NCBI GenBank assembly: GCA_964483245.1 | Contig: CAZABP010000011.1 | Location: forward strand, 22,126-86,125 | Length of the DNA stretch: 64,000 bases | Direction: 5' to 3' | Origin: an uncultured candidatus Brocadiaceae bacterium | GTDB taxonomy: Bacteria; Planctomycetota; UBA1135; UBA2386 | In this document: positions 3,575 through 47,127 of the stretch, piece after piece | Layout of the letters: each line of letters starts with the position of its first letter | How positions within the stretch are numbered: position 1 is the first letter of the stretch | Notes under the pieces: generated by a model | Told to the model about the DNA's origin: nothing | The model's database searches: none | Seen by the model: only the letters and a program-made list of their open reading frames with translations | Program-made: the position numbers and the translations under genes

Positions 3575-5032
3575 CTAGCCGAGCTTGGCCATCACGTCGG
3601 CGGCTTCCTTGTCGTCTCGCCGGACGTAGCCATCGGTCACGCGGGCGCTGCGATGGCCAAGCACAACGCGTGCGGACTCCAGGTTTCGTGTCGCAGCCTC
3701 GATCCGCGTGGCGGCAGCGTGCCTGAGAAGGTGCGGGTGCCAGTGGGGGATCATCTCCACGCGGCCGAGTGCTTCCCTCAGCCTCGCGCGGAAGGTCTTG
3801 GGCGAGACCGTGGCTTCGATGCCGGCGCTCCCCAGCATGTTGCACAGTTGCGTCGCGAGCCTCTCGCGAAACGCTCCAGGCTCCTCCGTGCTTGCTGGCG
3901 TCGGCAGCGAGCGCAGCGCCCCGGCCATCCATGGGGTAACCCCCGAGGTGCAGATGGTGGGCAACACCTCCTGGAGCACCGCGCCGAACCGCATCGCATT
4001 CGTCTTCTGGATGCCGTACGCGATCGCTCGCGCGTAGGAACACCGGTCGTACGCCGCCCGCTTGGCTCGCTGGTTCTCCCCCACTGGCTTCGACCGGCGC
4101 GCAGCCTGGGATGGTTGCACCTTCGACTTGCGCAGTGCCCGTCGGCGGATGGCGCGCTCGCGATCGGCGCGCTGTGGGCTGAACAGGGGCTCGCTCTGGC
4201 TTGGCCGCGGGACCCGGTCAAGGAACTCGCGAAGGACCACCTGGGCTTGCGGGCCGAAGTGCAGCGTCCGCCTATGGCCACGGTAGGCGGTCTTGTGCTT
4301 CTCGATCTTCGCGCTCCACACGTTCTCCCGACTCCGGTCGATGTCACACGGCCGTAGGTTGAGAACCTCGCCGCTCCGGGCACCCGTGTACCACTGCAGG
4401 AGGATCAAGGCGCGTACCTCACGCGTCACGTGCGGAAGCACTGGCTCCACGCATTCCCATGGAACCGGCTGCCGATCACGCGGCTCGCGTGCGTGAGACT
4501 TGTGGGGCTTCAGTGCCTTGAGCCTCCGAGCACGGCTCGCAACGTCCGGGTGAACGAGCTCCTTCTCGGCCGCCCAGTCGAGCATGCGCTTCACGCGGCC
4601 GATGCACTGGTTGACCGTCGTCCGAACCAAGCCTCGGCCCACGAGCTCATCCCGGAAGGCCTCAAGCTGCGGGATCCTGAACTCGGTGGCCCGCAACGCG
4701 CCGCAGCTCGCAGCGAGCCGTTCCATGGTTACTCGCACGGCATCCGCTTCCGACGAGCCTCGGTACTCGAGGCTGGCGTGGTCGGTGTAGCGCTGCGCCA
4801 GCTCGCTGATCGCAGGACTCGCGTCAGGTGCGTCACTCGGAACCGGAGGGACGGTGGGGCCCGACCGCTGGTGCGCCGGGCTCCTCCCGCTCATCAGTTC
4901 ACCGAGGAGGCGCTGAGCCTCCTGCTCGTCGGATCCAAGGGACCAGAACCGGCCCTTGAACCTCGTGTAGTACTGGACGGCGCCGCTCGGGAGACGGCGC
5001 TTCTTGATCCGAGCCTCAGGACGTTTCGGCAT
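3575..5032 (-). CDS. int: Tyrosine recombinase / phage integrase
   Basis: C-terminal catalytic signature HWHPHLLRHAAATRI...VLGHRSARVTDGYV (R..H-x-x-R..H..Y). Start chosen at MPKRPEARIKKRRLPSG (ATG 5032). The ORF-track extension to 5137 would read through the tRNA-proximal arm. Adjacent to the tRNA 3' end. Confidence 0.9.
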   Translation of the reverse strand: MPKRPEARIKKRRLPSGAVQYYTRFKGRFWSLGSDEQEAQRLLGELMSGRSPAHQRSGPTVPPVPSDAPDASPAISELAQRYTDHASLEYRGSSEADAVRVTMERLAASCGALRATEFRIPQLEAFRDELVGRGLVRTTVNQCIGRVKRMLDWAAEKELVHPDVASRARRLKALKPHKSHAREPRDRQPVPWECVEPVLPHVTREVRALILLQWYTGARSGEVLNLRPCDIDRSRENVWSAKIEKHKTAYRGHRRTLHFGPQAQVVLREFLDRVPRPSQSEPLFSPQRADRERAIRRRALRKSKVQPSQAARRSKPVGENQRAKRAAYDRCSYARAIAYGIQKTNAMRFGAVLQEVLPTICTSGVTPWMAGALRSLPTPASTEEPGAFRERLATQLCNMLGSAGIEATVSPKTFRARLREALGRVEMIPHWHPHLLRHAAATRIEAATRNLESARVVLGHRSARVTDGYVRRDDKEAADVMAKLG

Positions 5033-5145
5033 CGCGGGAACCTCAAACCGTGCACGTGCACGGCTCCTCTGGGGTGAAACTGGGTTCTCCGCACCGCTCC
5101 GAAGGAACGGGTTCGGCTGCAAGGCCGATCGGATCAAGCTTGCAG

Positions 5146-5222
5146 TGGCACACCCGTCAGGACTCGAACCTGAAACCTCCTGATCCGTAGTCAGGTGCTC
5201 TATCCAATTGAGCTACGGGTGC
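5146..5222 (-). tRNA. tRNA-Arg (anticodon ACG), 77 nt with encoded CCA
   Basis: Manual cloverleaf: GCACCCG TA GCTC AATTGGATA GAGC A CCTGA CTACGGA TCAGG AGGTT TCAGG TTCGAGT CCTGA CGGGTGT G CCA. All stems pair except a G1-U72 wobble. Close to the E. coli tRNA-Arg(ACG) layout. Confidence 0.92.
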
Positions 5223-10245: not shown

Positions 10246-10346
10246 CCCCTTCCCGTTCCCCTTCCCTTTCCTCGCCTTACCCCAGCCCTAGCCCCAGCCC
10301 GAGCCCGTCCCGTTCCCGTCCAAGCCCTTCCCTCTCTCTATTCCCG
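10246..10346. repeat. Strand-asymmetric polypyrimidine C-run tract (about 13 G3-4 runs on the minus strand)
   Basis: ccccttcccgttccccttccctttcctcgccttaccccagccctagccccagcccgagcccgtcccgttcccgtccaagcccttccctctctc lies between convergent gene ends (10190 and 10338). Confidence 0.7.
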
Positions 10347-11111
10347 GATCCACGACGGCCTTCGTTTCGCCAAGAACGCCCCCATCCCCTCACGCATCTC
10401 GTCGGTCGAACTGACGACGCCGAACAGATCCGCCTCGAGCTGCAGGCCGTCGGCGAGACTCATCGCGACGCCGCGCCGCGCAGCCTGCTTGGCCAGCGCC
10501 AACGCCTGCGGCCCGCGCGACAGGATCCGGCGCGCGATCTTCTCGGTGCCGGCGCGCAACTCGTCCGGCGCGAACACGCCATTGATCAGCCCGAGCCGCA
10601 AGGCCTCCTCGGCGGTCACCGGATCTCCGGTCAGGATCATCTGCAACGCCGGCCCGAGCCCGATCAACCGCGGCAACCGCTGCGTCCCGCCGTAGCCGGG
10701 AATGATCCCGAGCGAGACTTCGGGCAGGCCGAGCTTCGCCGCCGTCGACGCAAACCGCAGATCGCAGGCGAGCGCGAGCTCGAGTCCTCCACCGAGCGCA
10801 TAGCCGTGGATCATCGCGACGAACGGCTTCGGCGACGTCTCGATCGCGAGCGTCAGCGTCTGTCCGTGCCGCGCGTTCTCGCGCCCGGTCAGCACATCCT
10901 GGGTCGCCAGCTCGCTGACGTCGGCGCCGGCGACGAACGCCTTCTCGCCGGCGCCGGTCAGGATCACCACCCCGACCGCGTCGTCGGCGGACAGTGCGTG
11001 CACGCTCTCCTGCAGCGCGTCGATCGTGGCGCGGTCGAGCGCGTTCAGCTTCTCCGGCCGATCGACGACCAGCGTCGCGATCGCACCGTCGCGCTCGATC
11101 CGGACCGTCAT
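10338..11111 (-). CDS. Enoyl-CoA hydratase/isomerase (crotonase family)
   Basis: MTVRIERDGAIATLVVDRPEKLNALD..., VVILTGAGEKAFVAGADV, AMIHGYALGGGLELALACDLRFA are classic crotonase motifs. ATGA overlap with the upstream PPIase. Confidence 0.9.
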   Translation of the reverse strand: MTVRIERDGAIATLVVDRPEKLNALDRATIDALQESVHALSADDAVGVVILTGAGEKAFVAGADVSELATQDVLTGRENARHGQTLTLAIETSPKPFVAMIHGYALGGGLELALACDLRFASTAAKLGLPEVSLGIIPGYGGTQRLPRLIGLGPALQMILTGDPVTAEEALRLGLINGVFAPDELRAGTEKIARRILSRGPQALALAKQAARRGVAMSLADGLQLEADLFGVVSSTDEMREGMGAFLAKRRPSWIRE

Positions 11112-11674
11112 TCCGCGGTCTCCGCCGTCTCACCGGCAATCGCCGCCGCCGGTTCGACGCGCACCGAGTGCAGACCGATCCGGGTCACCGGCTTGCTGCG
11201 TTCCCCGCCGGCGCCGAACTCCACCTCGCTGGCGGCGATCGCATCGAGCACGTCGAGACCTTCGCTCAGCTCACCGAACACCGTGTAGTTCCCATCCAGT
11301 GAGGCGACGTGATCGCCGTGCACGATGAAGAACTGACTCCCCGCAGAATCCGGATGCGCCGAACGCGCCATCGACAGGACTCCGCGCCGGTGCGGCTTGT
11401 TGTTGAACTCCGCCGCGACCCGATGCCCCGGGCCACCGGTGCCCGGCTGCCCGCGCCCGCCCGACTTCGTGTTCGGACAACCACCCTGGATCATGAACCC
11501 GCGCACGACGCGGTGGAACGCGGTCCCGTCGTAGAACCCTTGCTGCGCGAGCGTCAGGAAGTTGCGCACGTGGTTGGGCGCGACATCGGGAAAGAAACGC
11601 GCGCGCATGCGCCCCTTGTCGGTGTCGAGGACGGCTTCGAGGGTCGAGAGGTCGGTGCGGTCCAGGTCGATCAT
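11108..11674 (-). CDS. ppiB: Peptidyl-prolyl cis-trans isomerase, cyclophilin type (cytoplasmic)
   Basis: FHRVVRGFMIQGGCPNTK...GVLSMARSAHPDSAGSQFFIV is the cyclophilin signature. No signal peptide. Confidence 0.9.
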   Translation of the reverse strand: MIDLDRTDLSTLEAVLDTDKGRMRARFFPDVAPNHVRNFLTLAQQGFYDGTAFHRVVRGFMIQGGCPNTKSGGRGQPGTGGPGHRVAAEFNNKPHRRGVLSMARSAHPDSAGSQFFIVHGDHVASLDGNYTVFGELSEGLDVLDAIAASEVEFGAGGERSKPVTRIGLHSVRVEPAAAIAGETAETAE

Positions 11675-11690: not shown

Positions 11691-11856
11691 CTAGAAGTCG
11701 CTTCACAAAGCCTCCGCGGCTGCGGCCGGCCCCCGCACCCGAGGACGGCGTCGCGAGATCTGCGGCGAACCCACCGATCCGCCTACGATCTCGCTCCTTG
11801 CCCTGTGCCGCGCTGGCTCGGCCTCGCGTGCGAAGCATTTGTGCGACGACTGCTAC
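11691..11856 (+). repeat. 166-bp palindromic MITE-like element, copy A
   Basis: ~93% identical to the reverse complement of 12843-13008. Termini ctagaagtcgcttcacaaag / catttgtgcgacgactgcta form ~20-bp terminal inverted repeats. The interior is an imperfect palindrome. Confidence 0.8.
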
Positions 11857-12815
11857 TGCCGCGCCGGCAACACGATGGCGGCGTGCAGGATCACGTCGAC
11901 CGTCGGCTTGCTCGGCTGCGGTTCGTTGCCGTACGTCACCGGGACGTCGGCGATCTTCTGCAGCGTGTCGAGCCCGGACTCGAGTTGCGCAAACGCCGTG
12001 AAGCGCCCATCCAGGTCCGGCCGCTCCCCGGTCATGATGAAGAACTGGCACCCGGCCGAATTCGGGTCGTTCATGCGCGCCATCGACAGCACGCCGCGCG
12101 CGTGCCGCAGATCGTTGAACTCCGCCTCGATCGTGTAGCCGGGATTCCCGGTGCCCGGCATTCCGGTCGCGCCCGGCTTCGTGTTCGGGCAGCCACCCTG
12201 GATCATGAACGTGCGGATCACGCGGTGGAACTTCGTGCCGTTGTAGAACCCGTCCTTGCTGAGCTTGACGAAGTTCTCGACCGTCTTCGGCGCCTTGTCC
12301 GGCCGCAGCGTCACGACCATGTTGCCGTGGCTCGTGACCAGCAGGACCTTCGTCTTGCTCAGGTCGAGCGCGCGCAGATCGAGCGAGCGCAGATCCGGCG
12401 CCACGCGCAGCATCGTGCTCGCGCCCGGCAGTCCGCGCCACTCGACGGCGACGTCGGTCAGCTTCCCCCCCTCCGCCGGCACCTGCACGCCGCTCAAGTC
12501 CAGCTCGACCGTGCGTTCGATCCGCGTGCCAGCCGCGATCGGCACCGTGCCGAGCGCCTCGACCTGGAACGTCGGCCCCGGCTGATCGCCGATCCGCGTC
12601 ACCAGATCCTGCCCGGCCAGTGCGCGGACCGGGATCTCCGTATCGCGGCGCGCGGTCACGGTCAGCTTCAGTTGGACTCCCGGTCCGGCCATGACGACCG
12701 GGATCGGGGCCTCGAGGCGGGCGACCACGGCCGGGTCGGGATGCGACGAGGCAGTCGTCTGGGCCGCGAGCGAGGCGGCGAACATGCAGAACACAGCGCA
12801 GGCGGATCGATTCAT
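11853..12815 (-). CDS. Secreted cyclophilin-type peptidyl-prolyl isomerase with N-terminal extra domain
   Basis: Signal peptide MNRSACAVFCMFAASLAAQTT. C-terminal cyclophilin signature FHRVIRTFMIQGGCPNTK...GVLSMARMNDPNSAGCQFFIM. The stop codon lies inside the terminal repeat of MITE copy A. Confidence 0.9.
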   Translation of the reverse strand: MNRSACAVFCMFAASLAAQTTASSHPDPAVVARLEAPIPVVMAGPGVQLKLTVTARRDTEIPVRALAGQDLVTRIGDQPGPTFQVEALGTVPIAAGTRIERTVELDLSGVQVPAEGGKLTDVAVEWRGLPGASTMLRVAPDLRSLDLRALDLSKTKVLLVTSHGNMVVTLRPDKAPKTVENFVKLSKDGFYNGTKFHRVIRTFMIQGGCPNTKPGATGMPGTGNPGYTIEAEFNDLRHARGVLSMARMNDPNSAGCQFFIMTGERPDLDGRFTAFAQLESGLDTLQKIADVPVTYGNEPQPSKPTVDVILHAAIVLPARQ

Positions 12816-12842
12816 GGCGGGCCGTAACGGGCGGTTCTCGTT

Positions 12843-13008
12843 CTAGCAGTCGTTTCACAAATGCTTCGCAGGCGAGGCCGAGCCCGCGCGGCCGAGGGCA
12901 AGGAGCGAGATCGTAGGCGAATCGGTGGATTCGCCGCAGATCTCGCGACGCCGCCCTCGGGTGCGGGGGCCGGCCGCAGCCGCGGAGGCTTTGTGAAACG
13001 ACTTCTAG
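12843..13008 (-). repeat. 166-bp palindromic MITE-like element, copy B (inverted relative to copy A)
   Basis: Termini ctagcagtcgtttcacaaatg / ctttgtgaaacgacttctag are near-perfect terminal inverted repeats. Central hairpin ggcgaatc-ggtg-gattcgcc. Confidence 0.8.
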
Positions 13009-13038: not shown

Positions 13039-14232
13039 TCACTCCCGCGCGAACGCCATCGCCATCCCCATGCCACCGCTCATGCACAGCGTCGCGAGGC
13101 CGCGCCGGCCCCCGCGGCGGCGCAGCTCGTGCAGCAGAGTCACGACGATCCGGGCCCCGGTCGCGCCGATCGGATGCCCGAGCGCGATGGCACCGCCGTT
13201 GACGTTCAGGCGTTCCGGATCCAGCTGCAGGTCACGGTCGCAGGCGACGATCTGGGCGGCGAACGCCTCGTTCAACTCGACCAGGTCGTAGTCGCGCAAC
13301 GCCGTGCCGGTGCGCTCCAGCAGCGCGCGCACCGCCGGCACCGGGCCGATCCCCATGATCCGCGGCGGCACGCCGGCCGACGCCGAGGCCCCGACCGTGG
13401 CGAGCGGCGTGAGTCCACGCCGCTGCGCTTCCGCGGCACTCATCAGCAGCAGCGCGGCGGCGCCATCGGTGATGCCGGACGAGTTGCCGGCGTGGACCGT
13501 GCCGCCTTGCGGGCGGAACACCGGCGGCAGCTTGCGCAGCTGCTCCAGCGTCGTGCCGGGCCGGACATGCTCGTCGTCGGTGATCTGCGTGACCTTCCCC
13601 TTCGCCTGGATCTCGACCGGCAGGATCTCGTCGCGGAAGCGCCCCGCGCGCTGTGCCTGTTCGGCCCGCTGGTGCGAGCGCAGCGCATACGCGTCCTGCT
13701 CCTCGCGCGAGATGCCGTAATCGTCCGCCAGATACTCGGCCGTCATCCCCATCGGCTCGCCGAGGATCCCGCAGGTGAAGCCATCCTGGTAGTTCCCATC
13801 CAGCACCTCCGCATGGCCGAGGCGGTAGCCCTGGCGCATCCGCGGCAGCAGGAACGGGATGTTGGTCATGCTCTCCATGCCGCCGGCGACGACGACGCGG
13901 CGGCCGCCGAGCTGGATGCTCGCGCAGGCGACCTCGATCGCGCGCAGCCCGGAGCCGCAGGCCTGGTTGAGGGTCATCGCGACCGTGGTGTCGGGACATC
14001 CGGCCTGCAGCGCGACCTGCCGCGCGGGGTTCGGGCCGGAGCCGAGCTGGCGCGCCTGGCCGAACAGCAGTTCCTCGACATCGGCTGCCGGAACCTGCGT
14101 CCGCGCCAGCAATCCACGCACGACATGCGCGCCGAGCTGGACTGCGGAAAGAGGGCTGAGACCCCCTAGAAACTTGCCGATCGGTGTACGAAATGCGCCA
14201 ATGACGACGACCGGCTCCATCCAGCCGACCAT
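13039..14232 (-). CDS. Acetyl-CoA C-acetyltransferase (thiolase)
   Basis: [28 protein letters not shown] (active-site Cys), [33 protein letters not shown]. Start at ATG 14232 (GGAGG just upstream) or 14220. The ORF-track start at 14493 is rejected because it overlaps the divergent gene. Confidence 0.9.
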
Positions 14233-14247
14233 AAGCCTCCACGCGCG

Positions 14248-14877
14248 ATGCCCGAAGGGCTGCCCAGCAATCCCGGCGAAGCGCCGATCTTCCCCCTCCC
14301 GGGTGTGATCCTGGTCCCGCAAGGGGAGCAGATCCTCCACGTCTTCGAGGAGCGGTACAAGGCGATGGTCGCGCACGCGCTCGCCGGGGAGCGCCTGATC
14401 GCGATGGCGGTGCTCGATCCGTCCCGGGCGCCGGACTTCGACGGAACGCCGGCCGTGTTCGATGTGGTCGGCCTGGGGCGGATCGTCGAGCACCAGCCGC
14501 TGCCGCAGGGGCGCTGCCTGATCCTGCTGAAGGGGATCGGCCGGTACCGCATCCTCCGTGAGGACCGCTCACGGCCGTTCCGCGTCGCGAAGCTGGCGCC
14601 GGTCGCGCAGGTCTGCGGCGATCCGGAGCGTGCCGTGGCCCTGGCGCGCGACCTGCTGCGGCGTCTGTGCTGCTCCGAAGTGCCGCCCGAGCTCGTCGAC
14701 CGCAAACAACGGCTCGCTGCCGCCGAGCGGATCGGCGACCAGGTCCTCGCGCAGCTGCCGCTGGACGCGGCGGCACGCCAGCGGGCGTTTGCGATGCCGG
14801 ATCTCGCGGAGCGGCTCGGCGCCCTGCACGGAATCCTCGATCGCTTCGAGCGTTCCGCGCGCCCGAACTGCAACTGA
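14248..14877 (+). CDS. Lon N-terminal (LON substrate-binding) domain protein
   Basis: PIFPLPGVILVPQGEQILHVFEERYKAMV matches the Lon-N/PUA-like opening motif (lPlFPL..vvlfPg..lpLhiFEpRY). About 200 aa, stand-alone. Confidence 0.75.
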   Translation: MPEGLPSNPGEAPIFPLPGVILVPQGEQILHVFEERYKAMVAHALAGERLIAMAVLDPSRAPDFDGTPAVFDVVGLGRIVEHQPLPQGRCLILLKGIGRYRILREDRSRPFRVAKLAPVAQVCGDPERAVALARDLLRRLCCSEVPPELVDRKQRLAAAERIGDQVLAQLPLDAAARQRAFAMPDLAERLGALHGILDRFERSARPNCN

Positions 14878-41889: not shown

Positions 41890-41961
41890 AGGACAGTTGG
41901 TGTCAGACTCCATCTCTCCCGAATCAGGACGGTTGGTGTCAGACTCCATCTCTCCCGAATC
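41890..41961 (+). repeat. Tandem direct repeat, 2 x 36 bp (aggacRgttggtgtcagactccatctctcccgaatc)
   Basis: Units 41890-41925 and 41926-41961 differ at one position. They are followed at 41971-41985 by the partial inverted copy gagtctgacgccgag. Confidence 0.85.
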
Positions 41962-41992
41962 GTGAGGCTAGAGTCTGACGCCGAGCGCCACG

Positions 41993-42319
41993 ATGACGCG
42001 ACACGAGTGCCGGATTGCGTCGCTGCGGAGCATGTTGGTGCTCCTGTCGTGGGCGGCGGCGTCAGGAGCGTGCGCGACGGTGGTCGGCACGGCGGCCTCC
42101 CCGGTCTCGTCGGTCGTCGAGTTCGTCGACGAATGGCACCCGACCGAGTGGTGGCAGTACGCCGTCGCTCCGTTCGGATTTGTGATGTACGTCGGGCTGA
42201 GTCCGGTGCTGGCCGCAGTCAAGGGTGTGGAGGCGGACATCGGGTTCGTGCGCAACGGCAACTACGAAGATCCGCCGTTCGGCCAGGTGTTCACCCCGTG
42301 GGCCGGGGTAGGTCACTGA
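41993..42319 (+). CDS. Small lipoprotein (108 aa), unknown function
   Basis: Lipobox: MLVLLSWAAASGAC. Trp/Tyr/Phe-containing mature part. Bracketed by the repeat family. Confidence 0.6.
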   Translation: MTRHECRIASLRSMLVLLSWAAASGACATVVGTAASPVSSVVEFVDEWHPTEWWQYAVAPFGFVMYVGLSPVLAAVKGVEADIGFVRNGNYEDPPFGQVFTPWAGVGH

Positions 42320-43610
42320 ATTCGGGCGGGTTGGAGTCTGACACCAAGCGTCCCGATTCAGCAGCGCGCTGCTGCAGCAGGTCACGCTCGCGCGCGTTCT
42401 GCGCCAGCGCGGCGGCGCGCAGGAAGTCCGCGCGCGCTGCCGCGAAGCGACCGAGCTTGTGCAGCAGGTCGGCGCGCGCCCCGTAGTACAGGTGATAGCA
42501 GCGCAGCTGCGGTTCCTCCGCGAGCGCATCGAGCAGCGCCAGTCCGGCAGCGGGCCCTTCCGCCATGCCGACTGCGATCGCGCGGTTCAGTTCGATGACC
42601 GGCGACGGCGCGCACACGGCGAGCTCGGCGTACAGCGCGGCGATCCGCGGCCAGTCGGTGCCGGCAGGCGTGCGCGCGCGTGCATGGCAGGCGGCGATCG
42701 CGGCCTGCAGCGTGTATGGCCCGCGAGGCGCGCGCCGTTCCGCCGATGCGAGCGCCGCGAGGCCGCGGCGGATCAGCAGGTGATCCCAGCGGCCGCGATC
42801 CTGGTCGAGCAGCAGGATCGGCCGTCCGTCCGCGTCCGTGCGCGCCCCGAGGCGCGATGCCTGCAACTCCATCAGGGCCACGAGACCGTGCACCTCCGGC
42901 TCGTGCGGCATCGCGGCGGCGAGGATGCGACCCAGGCGCATCCCTTCCTGGCACAGCGCCGGACGCATCCAGTCCTCGCCCGCTGTCGCTGCATACCCTT
43001 CGTTGAACACGAGGTAGATCACCGCCAGCACCGAACCGAGCCGCTCGCCGAGTTCGCCGCCGGACGGCACCTCGAATGGGACCTGTTGCCCGGTCAACGT
43101 CCGCTTGCTGCGCACGATCCGCTGCGCGATCGTCGGTTCCGGCGCCAGGAATGCGCGCGCGATCTCGCCCGTCGTCAGCCCGCCGACCAGGCGCAGTGTC
43201 AATGCCACGCGCGCGTCGGGGGGCAGCGCCGGGTGGCAGGTCAGGAACAGCAGCCGCAGCACGTCGTCGTCGAAACCGCGGTCGAGCCGCTCGTCGAGTT
43301 GTTCCGTCGCGGCAGGCACCGCACGCGGGTCGCCCCCGTCACGCAACAGGTCCGCCTCGAGATCACGCAGCTTGCGGTCGCGCCGCGCGCGGTCGATCCC
43401 GCGGCGTCGCGCCGTCGCGAGCAGCCATGCGCCAGGGCGTTGCGGGATCCCCTCGGCCGGCCACTGCTGCAGCGCCGCGACGAACGCGTCCTGGACCAGC
43501 TCTTCGGCCAGACCGACGTCACGCGTCTGCCGCGTCAGCGTGGCGATCAGCCGCGCCGACTCGATCCGCCAGACCGCCTCGATGGCACGCTGCGTCGCGG
43601 GGTCCGGCAC
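42291..43610 (-). CDS. ECF sigma factor with long C-terminal TPR-like extension (ECF42-like)
   Basis: Region 2 (AEELVQDAFVAALQQW...PGAWLLATARRRGIDRARR) and region 4 (GLTTGEIARAFLAPEPTIAQRIVRSKRTL), then a ~230-aa helical extension. Sits downstream of a YCII/DGPF gene. Confidence 0.85.
   Translation of the reverse strand: MPDPATQRAIEAVWRIESARLIATLTRQTRDVGLAEELVQDAFVAALQQWPAEGIPQRPGAWLLATARRRGIDRARRDRKLRDLEADLLRDGGDPRAVPAATEQLDERLDRGFDDDVLRLLFLTCHPALPPDARVALTLRLVGGLTTGEIARAFLAPEPTIAQRIVRSKRTLTGQQVPFEVPSGGELGERLGSVLAVIYLVFNEGYAATAGEDWMRPALCQEGMRLGRILAAAMPHEPEVHGLVALMELQASRLGARTDADGRPILLLDQDRGRWDHLLIRRGLAALASAERRAPRGPYTLQAAIAACHARARTPAGTDWPRIAALYAELAVCAPSPVIELNRAIAVGMAEGPAAGLALLDALAEEPQLRCYHLYYGARADLLHKLGRFAAARADFLRAAALAQNARERDLLQQRAAESGRLVSDSNPPEFSDLPRPTG
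42318..42359. repeat. Palindromic copy of the ttggtgtcagactcc repeat family (gaattcgggcgggttgg-agtctgaca-ccaagcgtcccgattc)
   Basis: The reverse complement of 42333-42359 (gaatcgggacgcttggtgtcagactcc) matches 41921-41947 (gaatcaggacggttggtgtcagactcc) at 24 of 27 positions. Confidence 0.75.
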
Positions 43611-44787: not shown

Positions 44788-47127
44788 TCAGGACCCGATC
44801 TTGCACTCGCCGGCGTTCGACAAGATCAAGCCCGGCGGGTTGGCGTTGCGGTCGACGACCACGCCCTGCACGTAGAACATCAGCCCGAGCAACTCGGCCT
44901 CCTGCGGCACCGGCAGCACGAAGCGCGCCGCGCCACCGATGTTCAGCAGCGGGAACGCCCAGTCCGCACTCTGGTAGAGATTGCAGCCGGGCATGCCGAG
45001 CGGCGTGAGGTCCAGCGGCAGCGGGATCGGCCCGAGATGGGTCCGCGAGAAGCCCAGGTGCATCAACGTCGGCGTCGGCACCAGCGGCAGCACCGTCAGA
45101 TCGAGCCGGAGGTCGTCACCGAGGACCGGGAGACTCCCGGGAGGCGCCGCCAGGTCCGGGATCCCACGGCTGCCGAGGCAACCGGAGCCGAAGCGCGACC
45201 AGCTCGCGAACGACTTGCTCGCGAACTCCCACGTGTCTTGCAGCACCGTCGAGCTCGGCGTGAAGCCGCCGAACATCACGACGCAGCGACGCGCCGAGTC
45301 GTAGACCGTGAAGTGCTCGTTCCGCCCCGGTGGCGTTCCGTCAGGCGTGCGCCGGCTCCAGTTCACACCGTCCCATTCCCAGGTCTGGAACTCGTTCGAG
45401 CCATTCAGGCTGCCGGCCAGCACCGTGCGCGCACGCGCCGAATCGAACGCCATCGATGCCTGGTAGATCGCAGGTGGCGCCGTAACCGGCATCGCCCTCG
45501 TCCAGGTCGTGCCGTCCCACTCCCAGGTGACGCGTTGCGCGCCCTCGACATAGGTCAACACGGTCTTGCTCCGAACCGAGTCGTACGCGATCCCGTAGTG
45601 CGACACGGCCGCAGGGCCGCCCGACGCACGCTGCTGCCAGTTCGTGCCGTCGTATTCCCAGGTGTCGTTCAGGTACTGGCCACCGAGCCGGTCACCGCCG
45701 AACAGGACCAGCCGGTTGCGCAGTGAGTCGTACGCCATCGCCGCGAGCCGCCGCGCCGGTGGCTTGGTCGCTGGGTTGAGCAACTGCCAGGCAGAGCCGT
45801 TCCAGCTCCAGGTCTCTTGCGTGATGTTCCCGGAGTCACCACCGAACAACATCGTGCGGTTCCAGCCGCTGGCGTACGCCATCGCGTGGCCGATCCGGGC
45901 CGCCGGCCCAGTGGTCGCGCGCAGCCGCCATCGGATGCCGTCCCATTCCCAGGTGTCCGCGATCCAACCCGTGGCGAGCGCTCCACCAAACAGCACGGTC
46001 TGGTTGCGTGCCGAGTCGAAGGCCATCGCGTGGTGACGCCGCGCCTGCGGGAGCGCGGTCGAGGAGGGAGTCCAGACCGTGCCGTTCCACTCCCAGGTGT
46101 CGGTGTTGCGCAGTCCGCTGGCGGCACGACCGCCGAACAGCAGGATGCGGGAGCTGGCAGCGTGGTAGCACAGCGCATGACCCGAGCCGGCCACCGGAAT
46201 CGGTGCCGCGGGGCTGACCTGCAGCCAGTTGGTCCCGTTCCATTCCCAGGTGTCGGTCAATGCGGCCGAAGCACCCTGGCCGCCGAACATGACGACGCGG
46301 CCGCGGGCGGTGTCGAATCCCAGCACTGAACGCGAGCGCACCGCGGGATTCGTCGTCGGCGCACGCTGCGTCCATGCGGTGCCGTTCCACGTCCAGGTCT
46401 GATTGAGTGGCGCCTGCGCAGCGTTCAGCCCGCCGAACAACACGCACACGTTCCGCGCCGCGTCGAACGTCAAGCCCGAGAACGACTGCGGCACCGGAGA
46501 GGTTGCCGGAGTCACGTTCGCCCACGTGGTCCCGTTCCATTCCCACAGGTCCGCCAGCGAGCCGAGCACGCCGACACCGCCGAACAGGACGACCCGGCCG
46601 CGCACGCTGTCGTATGCCATCGCCGCTCCGCGCCGCGCGGTCGGTGACGTGGCCGGCGCGAGCTGGGTCCACGTGCTGCCATTCCACAGCCAGGTGTCGT
46701 TCAGCGGTTGCACGCCGTCCTGTCCGCCGAACAGGAGGACCTGGCCTCCCGGCAGCCCGACCATCGCATGTTCCCACCGGGTCGACGGGGATGTCGCTGG
46801 CGCGAGCAGGGACCAGGCTGCGCCGTCCCAGCGCCAGGTGTCGCGGAGCCCCTTCGTCAGGTCGGTGCCGCCGAACAGGATGCTCTCCGCGCGTTGCGCG
46901 TCGTACCCGATCGCCGCATCGACGCGCGCCGGCGGTGCGATGACCTCGCGGTTGGACCACGAGAGCTGGGCCGGCGTGGTACCGGCCGTGCACGCGAACG
47001 CGAGCAGGAGCATCGCGCCCGTGGGCAACGGCGTGAATGGAATGCGCATCCTCGACTCCGCGCGTGCAGCAACGGAGTCGACTGCAGCGGCGCACCTGCG
47101 CGAGTGCGTCGAAATCGATGCAGTCAT
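44788..47127 (-). CDS. Secreted 12-blade Kelch-repeat protein with Cys-containing C-terminal domain
   Basis: Twelve repeats of about 50 aa, each ending in (D/Q)TW(E/x)W(N/D)G..W. Hydrophobic signal-like segment GAMLLLAFACTAGTTPAQ. GGAGG lies 4 nt upstream of ATG 47127; the alternative start is ATG 47049. Confidence 0.85.
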   Translation of the reverse strand: MTASISTHSRRCAAAVDSVAARAESRMRIPFTPLPTGAMLLLAFACTAGTTPAQLSWSNREVIAPPARVDAAIGYDAQRAESILFGGTDLTKGLRDTWRWDGAAWSLLAPATSPSTRWEHAMVGLPGGQVLLFGGQDGVQPLNDTWLWNGSTWTQLAPATSPTARRGAAMAYDSVRGRVVLFGGVGVLGSLADLWEWNGTTWANVTPATSPVPQSFSGLTFDAARNVCVLFGGLNAAQAPLNQTWTWNGTAWTQRAPTTNPAVRSRSVLGFDTARGRVVMFGGQGASAALTDTWEWNGTNWLQVSPAAPIPVAGSGHALCYHAASSRILLFGGRAASGLRNTDTWEWNGTVWTPSSTALPQARRHHAMAFDSARNQTVLFGGALATGWIADTWEWDGIRWRLRATTGPAARIGHAMAYASGWNRTMLFGGDSGNITQETWSWNGSAWQLLNPATKPPARRLAAMAYDSLRNRLVLFGGDRLGGQYLNDTWEYDGTNWQQRASGGPAAVSHYGIAYDSVRSKTVLTYVEGAQRVTWEWDGTTWTRAMPVTAPPAIYQASMAFDSARARTVLAGSLNGSNEFQTWEWDGVNWSRRTPDGTPPGRNEHFTVYDSARRCVVMFGGFTPSSTVLQDTWEFASKSFASWSRFGSGCLGSRGIPDLAAPPGSLPVLGDDLRLDLTVLPLVPTPTLMHLGFSRTHLGPIPLPLDLTPLGMPGCNLYQSADWAFPLLNIGGAARFVLPVPQEAELLGLMFYVQGVVVDRNANPPGLILSNAGECKIGS

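Follow-up and report, generated by a model that had tools for sequence, protein, structure and literature searches.

Two inverted copies of a 166-bp palindrome lie on either side of a secreted cyclophilin gene in a 64,000-nt stretch of contig CAZABP010000011.1 (hereafter the window), which comes from an uncultured member of the Planctomycetota with a G+C content of 70%. Do the two copies and the gene form a single unit, or did two copies of a mobile element arrive there separately? Copy A and copy B occupy spacers in a run of four genes, all on the minus strand, that encode a thiolase, the secreted cyclophilin, a second cyclophilin and an enoyl-CoA hydratase. In our reading, to which we assign a probability of about 0.8, they are copies of a miniature inverted-repeat transposable element (MITE) of ~160 bp plus a duplicated TA, inserted independently into two spacers of the operon and moved in trans. 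An earlier note on this DNA had proposed a MITE-like non-autonomous transposon, and that proposal is borne out by an empty B site in a close relative and by related copies at unrelated loci.

Insertion history at the cyclophilin locus

A 98%-identical variant of the secreted cyclophilin (P0001) was found in the protein database and is encoded on two contigs, L039 and L040, from separate sequencing runs. Both extend from the end of the thiolase gene through the spacer and across the cyclophilin gene, with flanks 98.4% and 96.5% identical to the window. Copy B is absent from both, and their thiolase-cyclophilin spacer is 61 nt long and reads GGAGCTAGAACG. The filled site in the window reads GGAG CTAG AAGTCG...CGACTG CTAG AACG, that is, 158 nt between two CTAG motifs. 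Relative to L039/L040, the window has gained 162 nt and carries CTAG twice instead of once. Copy A is present in L039/L040, since both contigs enter it by ~28 nt and end at the identical point. As A is present where the B site is empty, A is the older of the two. The pair of sequences documents recent transposition in an uncultured Planctomycetota lineage, and the MITE copies also explain why short-read assemblies break on both sides of the cyclophilin gene.

A more distant relative, with 63% protein identity, has the same four-gene order, and there, as in the window, the operon lies between a patatin gene and a gene for a LON-substrate-binding-domain protein. Its spacers, of 49 and 40 nt, are free of the element. 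From this we conclude that both copies are derived insertions into an old operon, that the gene orientation seen in the window is ancestral and that the cyclophilin gene is not cargo. Copies A and B are thus independent insertions, and the bracketing of the cyclophilin gene is coincidental. Copy A inserted first, at the TA of the cyclophilin TAG stop, restoring that codon; the reconstructed empty site, ...CGG CAG TAG TAG AAC, would give the same C-terminus, ARQ*. Copy B followed, entering a CTAG that precedes the cyclophilin start by 27 nt; its presence is polymorphic among strains.

Structure, target site and relatives of the element

The inverted repeat formed by 11691-11855 and 12844-13008 extends over 165 nt with 94% complementarity and a separation of 988 nt, and is by far the longest in the window. 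The earlier note had put the identity of the two opposed copies at ~93%. On pairwise alignment, the similarity ends sharply outside CTAG...CTAG in copy B and CTAG...CTAC in copy A; the claim that both copies start and end with CTAG is therefore right for copy B and for the left end of A, but not for the right end of A. At ≤3 mismatches, the window has three matches to the terminal 20-mer CTAGAAGTCGTTTCACAAAG, and 100 shuffles have none. The fourth terminus, the right (high-coordinate) end of A, is degenerate, reading GTAGCAGTCGTCGCACAAAT; the decayed sequence there, GTAGCAGTCGTCGCAC, belongs to the beta-side terminal repeat. A profile search with nhmmer returned no copy in the window beyond A and B.

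Each copy is an imperfect palindrome with arms of ~80 bp. Copy B is predicted to fold as RNA at -107.9 kcal/mol (z = -10.4) and copy A at -95.7 kcal/mol (z = -5.6), and in neither case was any of 200 shuffles as stable. The central hairpin described earlier for copy B lies at 12916-12935 (Table 1). The terminal repeats, given earlier as ~20 bp, are near-perfect in their outer ~19 nt as described, but pairing extends over the whole arms, and the repeats are effectively the entire ~80-nt arms, which are of two types, alpha and beta. The 166 bp are non-coding: open reading frames (ORFs) across the copies are read-through only, and there is no Pfam or Rfam signal. A permissive Rfam search of the region, together with a search of the whole window at the gathering threshold, yielded two tRNAs and nothing else.

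Alignment of all arms gave ...AAAGC.. GCGGCTGCGGCCGGCCCC ... GCGTCGCGAG for alpha and ...AAATG.. CGAGGCCGAGC ... GGCAAGGAGCGAG for beta. Between the arms lies an apex, GAATC-NNNN-GATTC, with four variable loop bases. The order of alpha and beta is identical in the window copies and in the relatives L021, L025 and L054. When five full-length copies were aligned, 87.5% of cells were paired. Compensatory changes were found at 15 pairs, compared with 7.4±1.7 in shuffles (0/500 reach 15) and 0-4 when the partner was slid, the support for covariation coming from three independent lineages only. Because compensatory pairs exceed both the shuffled and the slid controls, the palindrome is actively maintained. 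Pairing may be kept because a single transposase must bind both arms, because repair is templated by the hairpin, or because a DNA or RNA hairpin is under selection.

Fifteen intact ends were compared for the target site. All 15 have the inner TA with G after it, and the base outside the TA is C in 12 and G in 3. The ends read TA and then G(A/C)AGTCG, with the terminal-repeat motif G(A/C)AGTCGTTTCACAAA. Since TA-G is invariant and the outermost base varies, the pattern points to duplication of TA with a preference for CTAG. In the simplest model, the element is 160 bp long (G...C), its insertion duplicates TA, and its favored target is the palindromic CTAG. Comparison with the empty site limits the duplication at copy B to ≤4 bp and excludes 8 bp. 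A CTAG target-site duplication had been suggested earlier; insertion at CTAG is upheld by the single motif in the empty B site and the two in the filled one, but a duplicated TA is the simplest account. The window has 19 CTAG motifs where 175 would be expected, a nine-fold depletion, and three of the 19 are MITE termini; TA is three-fold under-represented. This scarcity helps to explain the insertions at stop codons and in spacers, to which a TA- and CTAG-seeking element is channelled where CTAG is so depleted. Over the whole window, TTAA is absent (32 expected), and GATC and TCGA are four-fold enriched.

The terminal 19-mer was scanned in 185,579 species-representative genomes and 241 million metagenome records, neither of which includes the window's own genome. 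The scan of species genomes gave 12 matches, of which 11 were chance and L015 alone was genuine. The same 19-mer had no match in the IMG/VR viral collection, and blastn against 72,556 plasmids gave chance matches only. The relatives from the 19-mer scans were confirmed with the nhmmer profile. Three relatives are full-length at ~76-80% identity (L021, L025 and L054), L015 is a fourth full-length copy at 67% identity, and L028 is an arm-only fragment that ends at the apex and is 82-85% identical over 66-90 nt. All seven copies with readable flanks (the two in the window, L015, L021, L025, L028 and L054) are intergenic, and the loci of the relatives are unrelated.

Because gene callers read through the elements, further copies can be found by protein searches with the element's open frames, and L054 was found in this way. 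Another such hit, the 520-aa NCBI protein P0241, begins with 58 residues of MITE read-through, which match copy B at 85% amino acid identity over 54 residues; next come a signal peptide and then a protein that the window does not encode. P0241 marks a third locus of the window's own subfamily, known from the protein alone. The earlier note had considered that the element might be limited to these two copies with none in relatives; instead, relatives are present in five other contigs and at the P0241 locus. Read-through of MITE copies explains how gene callers come to extend ORFs into spurious N-termini, as in P0241 and the P0242 cluster, and such calls offer a handle for finding more copies. 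In P0241 and the P0242 cluster, the latter an L025-like locus, the public gene calls begin inside the MITE and carry spurious N-termini of ~55 residues, e.g. LEVVSQS...FVKRLL. In L021, the MITE copy at 2828-2993 lies between divergent genes (lipB-like on the minus strand; on the plus strand, one for a small exported protein), with a gap of 12-14 nt to either start; the promoters of both genes, if any, must lie within or across it.

We also compared the element with described families. It behaves like the Correia/NEMIS elements and like MITEs of the IS630 type, yet is unrelated in sequence to every family described so far. Non-coding inverted repeats of ~70-160 bp that insert at TA are also found in Neisseria, as the Correia elements (CREE/NEMIS); these likewise encode no transposase. 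They too have terminal repeats of two sequence types, lie just upstream of genes with which they are co-transcribed, and show strain-specific insertions as evidence of mobility. By inspection there is no sequence similarity, and the likeness is one of analogy only. Correia elements have 26-bp repeats around a core, whereas the window element is palindromic throughout with ~80-nt arms. An integration host factor site, promoter creation and RNase III cleavage have been reported for Correia elements, while the window element is set apart by its planctomycete host of 70% G+C and its rare CTAG target. IS630, according to PMC2170065, whose reference list includes the title of Tenzen and Ohtsubo (1991), inserts at the TA within 5'-CTAG-3'. 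The window element shares with the IS630/Tc1-mariner group the duplicated TA target and the CTAG preference; the likeness is in insertion behaviour only, and no IS630-type transposase with matching repeats was found among the loci retrieved.

MITEPsy1 of Pseudomonas syringae, of the IS5 group, is 100 nt long with 18-nt repeats and inserts at CTAG or YTAA, duplicating the target (PMC3189936). A 4-bp CTAG duplication in the present element would require mutation in 3/15 ends (CTAC/GTAG), and the MITEPsy1 terminal repeat, GGAAGGTCTGAAAAAGCC in a table of PMC3189936, differs from that of the window element. Repetitive extragenic palindromic (REP) sequences and REPINs, which are associated with RAYT transposases, resemble it as extragenic palindromes. 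GTAG is moreover found at some ends of the window family, and Planctomycetes are reported to have GTAG-tagged repeats (PMC3733652). However, REPs are 20-40 bp long and make no target duplication, whereas the window element is 166 bp with a clean empty site and a duplicated TA/CTAG. A REP/RAYT origin was ruled out by the size and the duplication; GTAG occurs at 3/15 ends, where it reflects a variant flanking base.

The IS1595 chimera and the source of the transposase

The earlier note had stated that the window holds no transposase, and our searches agree: tblastn with an IS1595-type protein gave no hit in the window, and Pfam analysis of the ten flanking genes found no DDE transposase. The MITE would have been mobilized in trans by a transposase encoded elsewhere. 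The sole coding element found with MITE termini is 1210 bp long. This unit is present in L027 (=L043) and in L042, at different CTAG-flanked sites, and the two copies are 99.8% identical; an end in L020 marks a further site. The form bearing an insertion sequence (IS) was seen at four loci, at L020 by a single end. The unit encodes an intact 323-aa protein with the domains DDE_Tnp_IS1595 and Zn_ribbon_IS1595, and the outer 83 nt of its 111-nt terminal inverted repeats are the MITE alpha arm at both ends (alpha/alpha).

Within this unit the IS1595 core has ends of its own, AAGGGGGTATCC and AAGGGGGTATCCACTTCGCTC, located 86 nt inside. These ends are common to the arm-less relatives L044 and L046-L049 and to the named element ISCsp2. 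ISCsp2 in a finished plasmid is 1088 bp long with an 8-bp duplication, ACAAATGC, and the planctomycete element in L044 has a 9-nt direct repeat; 8 bp is the usual target duplication of the IS1595 family (PMC8101967). In L041 an identical core (0 mismatches over 1041 nt) stands in another context with the left arm absent, and in L045 a second, 85%-identical transposase adjoins a MITE beta arm. The equivalent of the copy B apex is, in other metagenomes, the position of an IS1595-type core. The core copies at L027 28-1237, L042 65-1274, L041 586-1636 and L020 1379-1584 are 100% identical and differ only in ~5 nt between GAATC and the core end (GCCTG, CGCTG, GACTGA). This junction is a hot spot that none of the models tested explains fully.

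In L052 (plasmid NZ_CP080763.1), ISCsp2 at 545-1632 sits in the 8-nt loop of a hairpin with a 9-bp stem, GAATACTGT/ACAGTATTC, beside an IS91-family transposase gene, and its flank recurs in L050 and L051. This location hints that the ISCsp2 clade may target hairpin loops, and it makes the landing of an ISCsp2-like IS in the MITE apex plausible. Given the separate canonical ends of the core and the 8-9-bp duplications made by related elements, an IS nested in the apex is more likely than an IS that is the MITE's parent. Among the options for the transposase, we lean towards an IS nested in a MITE that is itself moved by a TA-duplicating, CTAG-preferring enzyme of the IS630/Tc1-mariner type, by analogy with the insertion behaviour of that group. 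More tentatively, an ISCsp2-like IS1595 element may land repeatedly in the MITE apex, the resulting 1210-bp chimera then being copied by way of the MITE's CTAG/TA-seeking ends. If so, an autonomous IS rides on a non-autonomous element moved by a different transposase, and the usual relation of parent to MITE is reversed. An IS1595 member with 111-bp repeats that makes 2-bp TA duplications would be equally new for the family and is less likely than a hitch-hiking IS. The element itself is of an ordinary MITE kind, and the chimera is the only part that might surprise specialists; it is a small puzzle, its termini, duplication length and transposase family being at odds with one another.

The alternative is that the MITE arose by internal deletion from an IS1595-family IS with 111-bp repeats, the 1210-bp unit being its autonomous partner and acting on the outer ends. 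We consider this derivation unlikely, although a good deal speaks for it. The alpha arm forms the outer 83 nt at both ends of a unit whose transposase is intact, the unit recurs nearly unchanged at two CTAG-flanked sites and at the L020 end, the L045 transposase adjoins a beta arm, and no other transposase type was found with these termini in the genomes or metagenome records scanned. IS1595-derived MITEs are on record, including a 165-bp MITE of Haloquadratum walsbyi derived from ISHwa6, of the same size as the window element and with an 8-bp duplication (PMC3852290). Against the derivation stand the duplication of the MITE, ≤4 bp compared with 8-9 bp in the IS1595 clade, and the canonical IS1595 ends kept 86 nt inside the unit and in L044, L046-L049 and ISCsp2, whereas the window MITE lacks AAGGGGGTATCC ends. 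The identical core in L041 has no left arm, and mismatches cluster next to the core end. In three lineages the MITE joins an alpha arm to a beta arm, but the 1210-bp unit has two alpha arms. Nor are the outer terminal repeats related to the inner ones: the MITE ends GAAGTCGTTTCACAAAG, taken as diverged IS1595 core ends AAGGGGGTATCCACTTCGC, matched no better than shuffles (p = 0.96). The element lacks two defining features of an IS1595-derived MITE, an 8-bp (7-9 bp) duplication and homologous ends.

Several observations weigh against our interpretation of a MITE moved in trans by a TA-duplicating enzyme. No TA-duplicating transposase with MITE termini was found in the 185,579 genomes or 241 million metagenome records, and the only transposase seen between MITE termini is of the IS1595 type. 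The 1210-bp unit has been copied whole to at least two CTAG-flanked sites. A simple nested insertion with an 8-bp duplication does not account for L027/L042, where the junctions are inverted, not direct, and no direct 8-bp repeat is present; read inward, the core has the same junction on both sides. Inverted junctions would result if inverted IS copies had recombined and swapped flanks, and this hypothetical route is the only nested model that survives. With a palindromic preferred target, the length of the duplication is ambiguous and may be anything from 2 to 4 bp. Copies of the window subfamily seen by us number two in the 64-kb window, the total for its own genome lying outside the collections scanned. 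Finally, all RNA-level effects of A and B are predictions.

Rival readings, possible roles and neighboring features

Copies A and B are almost certainly contained in one shared transcript. Each copy would fold into a hairpin of ~80 bp in this polycistronic mRNA, or A and B would pair into a ~160-bp duplex. Because the copies are inverted and 94% alike, pairing of B with A is the thermodynamic optimum: in the predicted fold of the 1.3-kb RNA, B pairs with A over 159 nt, with a cofold energy of -368 kcal/mol, whereas two separate hairpins reach -204 kcal/mol. Folding during transcription, and the passage of ribosomes, would favor the local hairpins. RNase III could plausibly act on either form, by analogy with Correia hairpins, which are bound or cut by this enzyme (PMC2649163), and cleavage could uncouple the cistrons. 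A scan for promoters and terminators gave no signal tied to copy A or B and no T-tract of the terminator type after either. The window and L039/L040 form a natural strain pair, with and without a hairpin of -108 kcal/mol 27 nt upstream of a start codon, in which operon polarity is measurable.

Such predictions raise the possibility that the element is chiefly a structured RNA or DNA signal selected by the host, for mRNA processing or stability, as a cruciform or as a protein-binding site. In keeping with this, compensatory changes preserve arm pairing across three lineages; all seven readable copies occupy intergenic spacers, those inspected closely are either 12-27 nt away from a start or overlie a stop codon; high stability is predicted for the hairpins and for the A:B duplex; and the Correia elements, themselves TA-inserting MITEs, are documented RNase III substrates. 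However, copy B is present in one and absent from another of two near-identical strains and is therefore dispensable at this locus, there is no Rfam match, and co-evolution of the arms is also expected from binding of a shared transposase or from hairpin-templated repair, with only three independent lineages behind the covariation. We regard this reading as improbable. More improbable still is a single unit of A, B and the cyclophilin gene, either a composite transposon or an invertible cassette. The outer ends of the pair are both alpha-type and CTAG-flanked, and 165 nt at 94% identity could support homologous recombination that inverts the gene. Yet the earlier treatment of the pair as a unit bracketing the gene is contradicted by L039/L040, where copy A stands without B. 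The gene is moreover a resident one, with >120 Planctomycetota homologues, and occupies the same place and orientation, element-free, in the 63%-identical relative; all available contigs show the ancestral orientation only. A local scar of duplication and inversion, involving no mobility, would fit the restriction of the element to two copies at one locus in 64 kb. It is contradicted by the clean empty B site with its short duplication and by related copies dispersed to unrelated loci and other hosts, and we give it almost no credence.

The coordinates of the features at the locus are collected in Table 1. The ATG of the ppiB-like gene is at 11674, 16 nt from the end of copy A, and that of the secreted cyclophilin gene is at 12815, 27 nt from the end of copy B; the TAG stop of the latter is the reverse complement of the CTA at 11853-11855, within copy A. 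These distances, and the position of the stop codon in A, agree with those given in the earlier note. The thiolase frame listed is the maximal one, and the real start is probably near 14217. The homologues of the secreted cyclophilin are conserved in length and architecture at 43-63% identity, and the ~150-residue N-terminal part of the protein has no Pfam match.

Table 1. Features of the MITE-bearing operon (window coordinates)
Feature	Position	Strand	Remarks
MITE copy A, older insertion	11691..11856		element proper ~11694-11853; alpha arm at low-coordinate end, beta arm at high end; nhmmer E = 1.4e-45
MITE copy B, younger insertion, opposite orientation to A	12843..13008		element proper ~12846-13005; nhmmer E = 5.7e-49
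Apex hairpin of copy B, ggcgaatc ggtg gattcgcc	12916..12935		
TA left of copy A, half of inferred target duplication	11692..11693		other half 11854-11855
TA at low-coordinate side of copy B	12844..12845		partner 13006-13007; from empty-site alignment
Cyclophilin TAG stop	11853..11855	-	element's last base plus duplicated TA
Thiolase, operon gene 1	13039..14493	-	maximal ORF; Pfam domain from residue 95
Secreted cyclophilin, 320 aa	11853..12815	-	signal peptide, ~150-aa N-terminal region, Pro_isomerase domain; between copies A and B
Cytoplasmic cyclophilin, ppiB-like, 188 aa	11108..11674	-	downstream of copy A
Enoyl-CoA hydratase, final operon gene	10338..11111	-	

Other repeats and a recombinase gene were noted elsewhere in the window. 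An ORF at 3575-5137(-) encodes a protein with a Phage_integrase (tyrosine recombinase) domain and adjoins a tRNA gene at 5149-5222(-), a hint that the left end of the window carries an integrated island. Two tandem units of ~37 nt, AGGACrGTTGGTGTCAGACTCCATCTCTCCCGAATC, which differ from the MITE, lie at 41890-41962, and an inverted partial copy of the unit (45 nt, 84% complementary, 359 nt away) is found at 42320-42364. The ORF between these repeats, at 41994-42319, resembles a lipoprotein or membrane peptide. Nine copies of a periodic unit of ~144 nt occupy 45341-46703, inside an ORF at 44788-47127(-) whose protein has a repeated module of ~48 residues.

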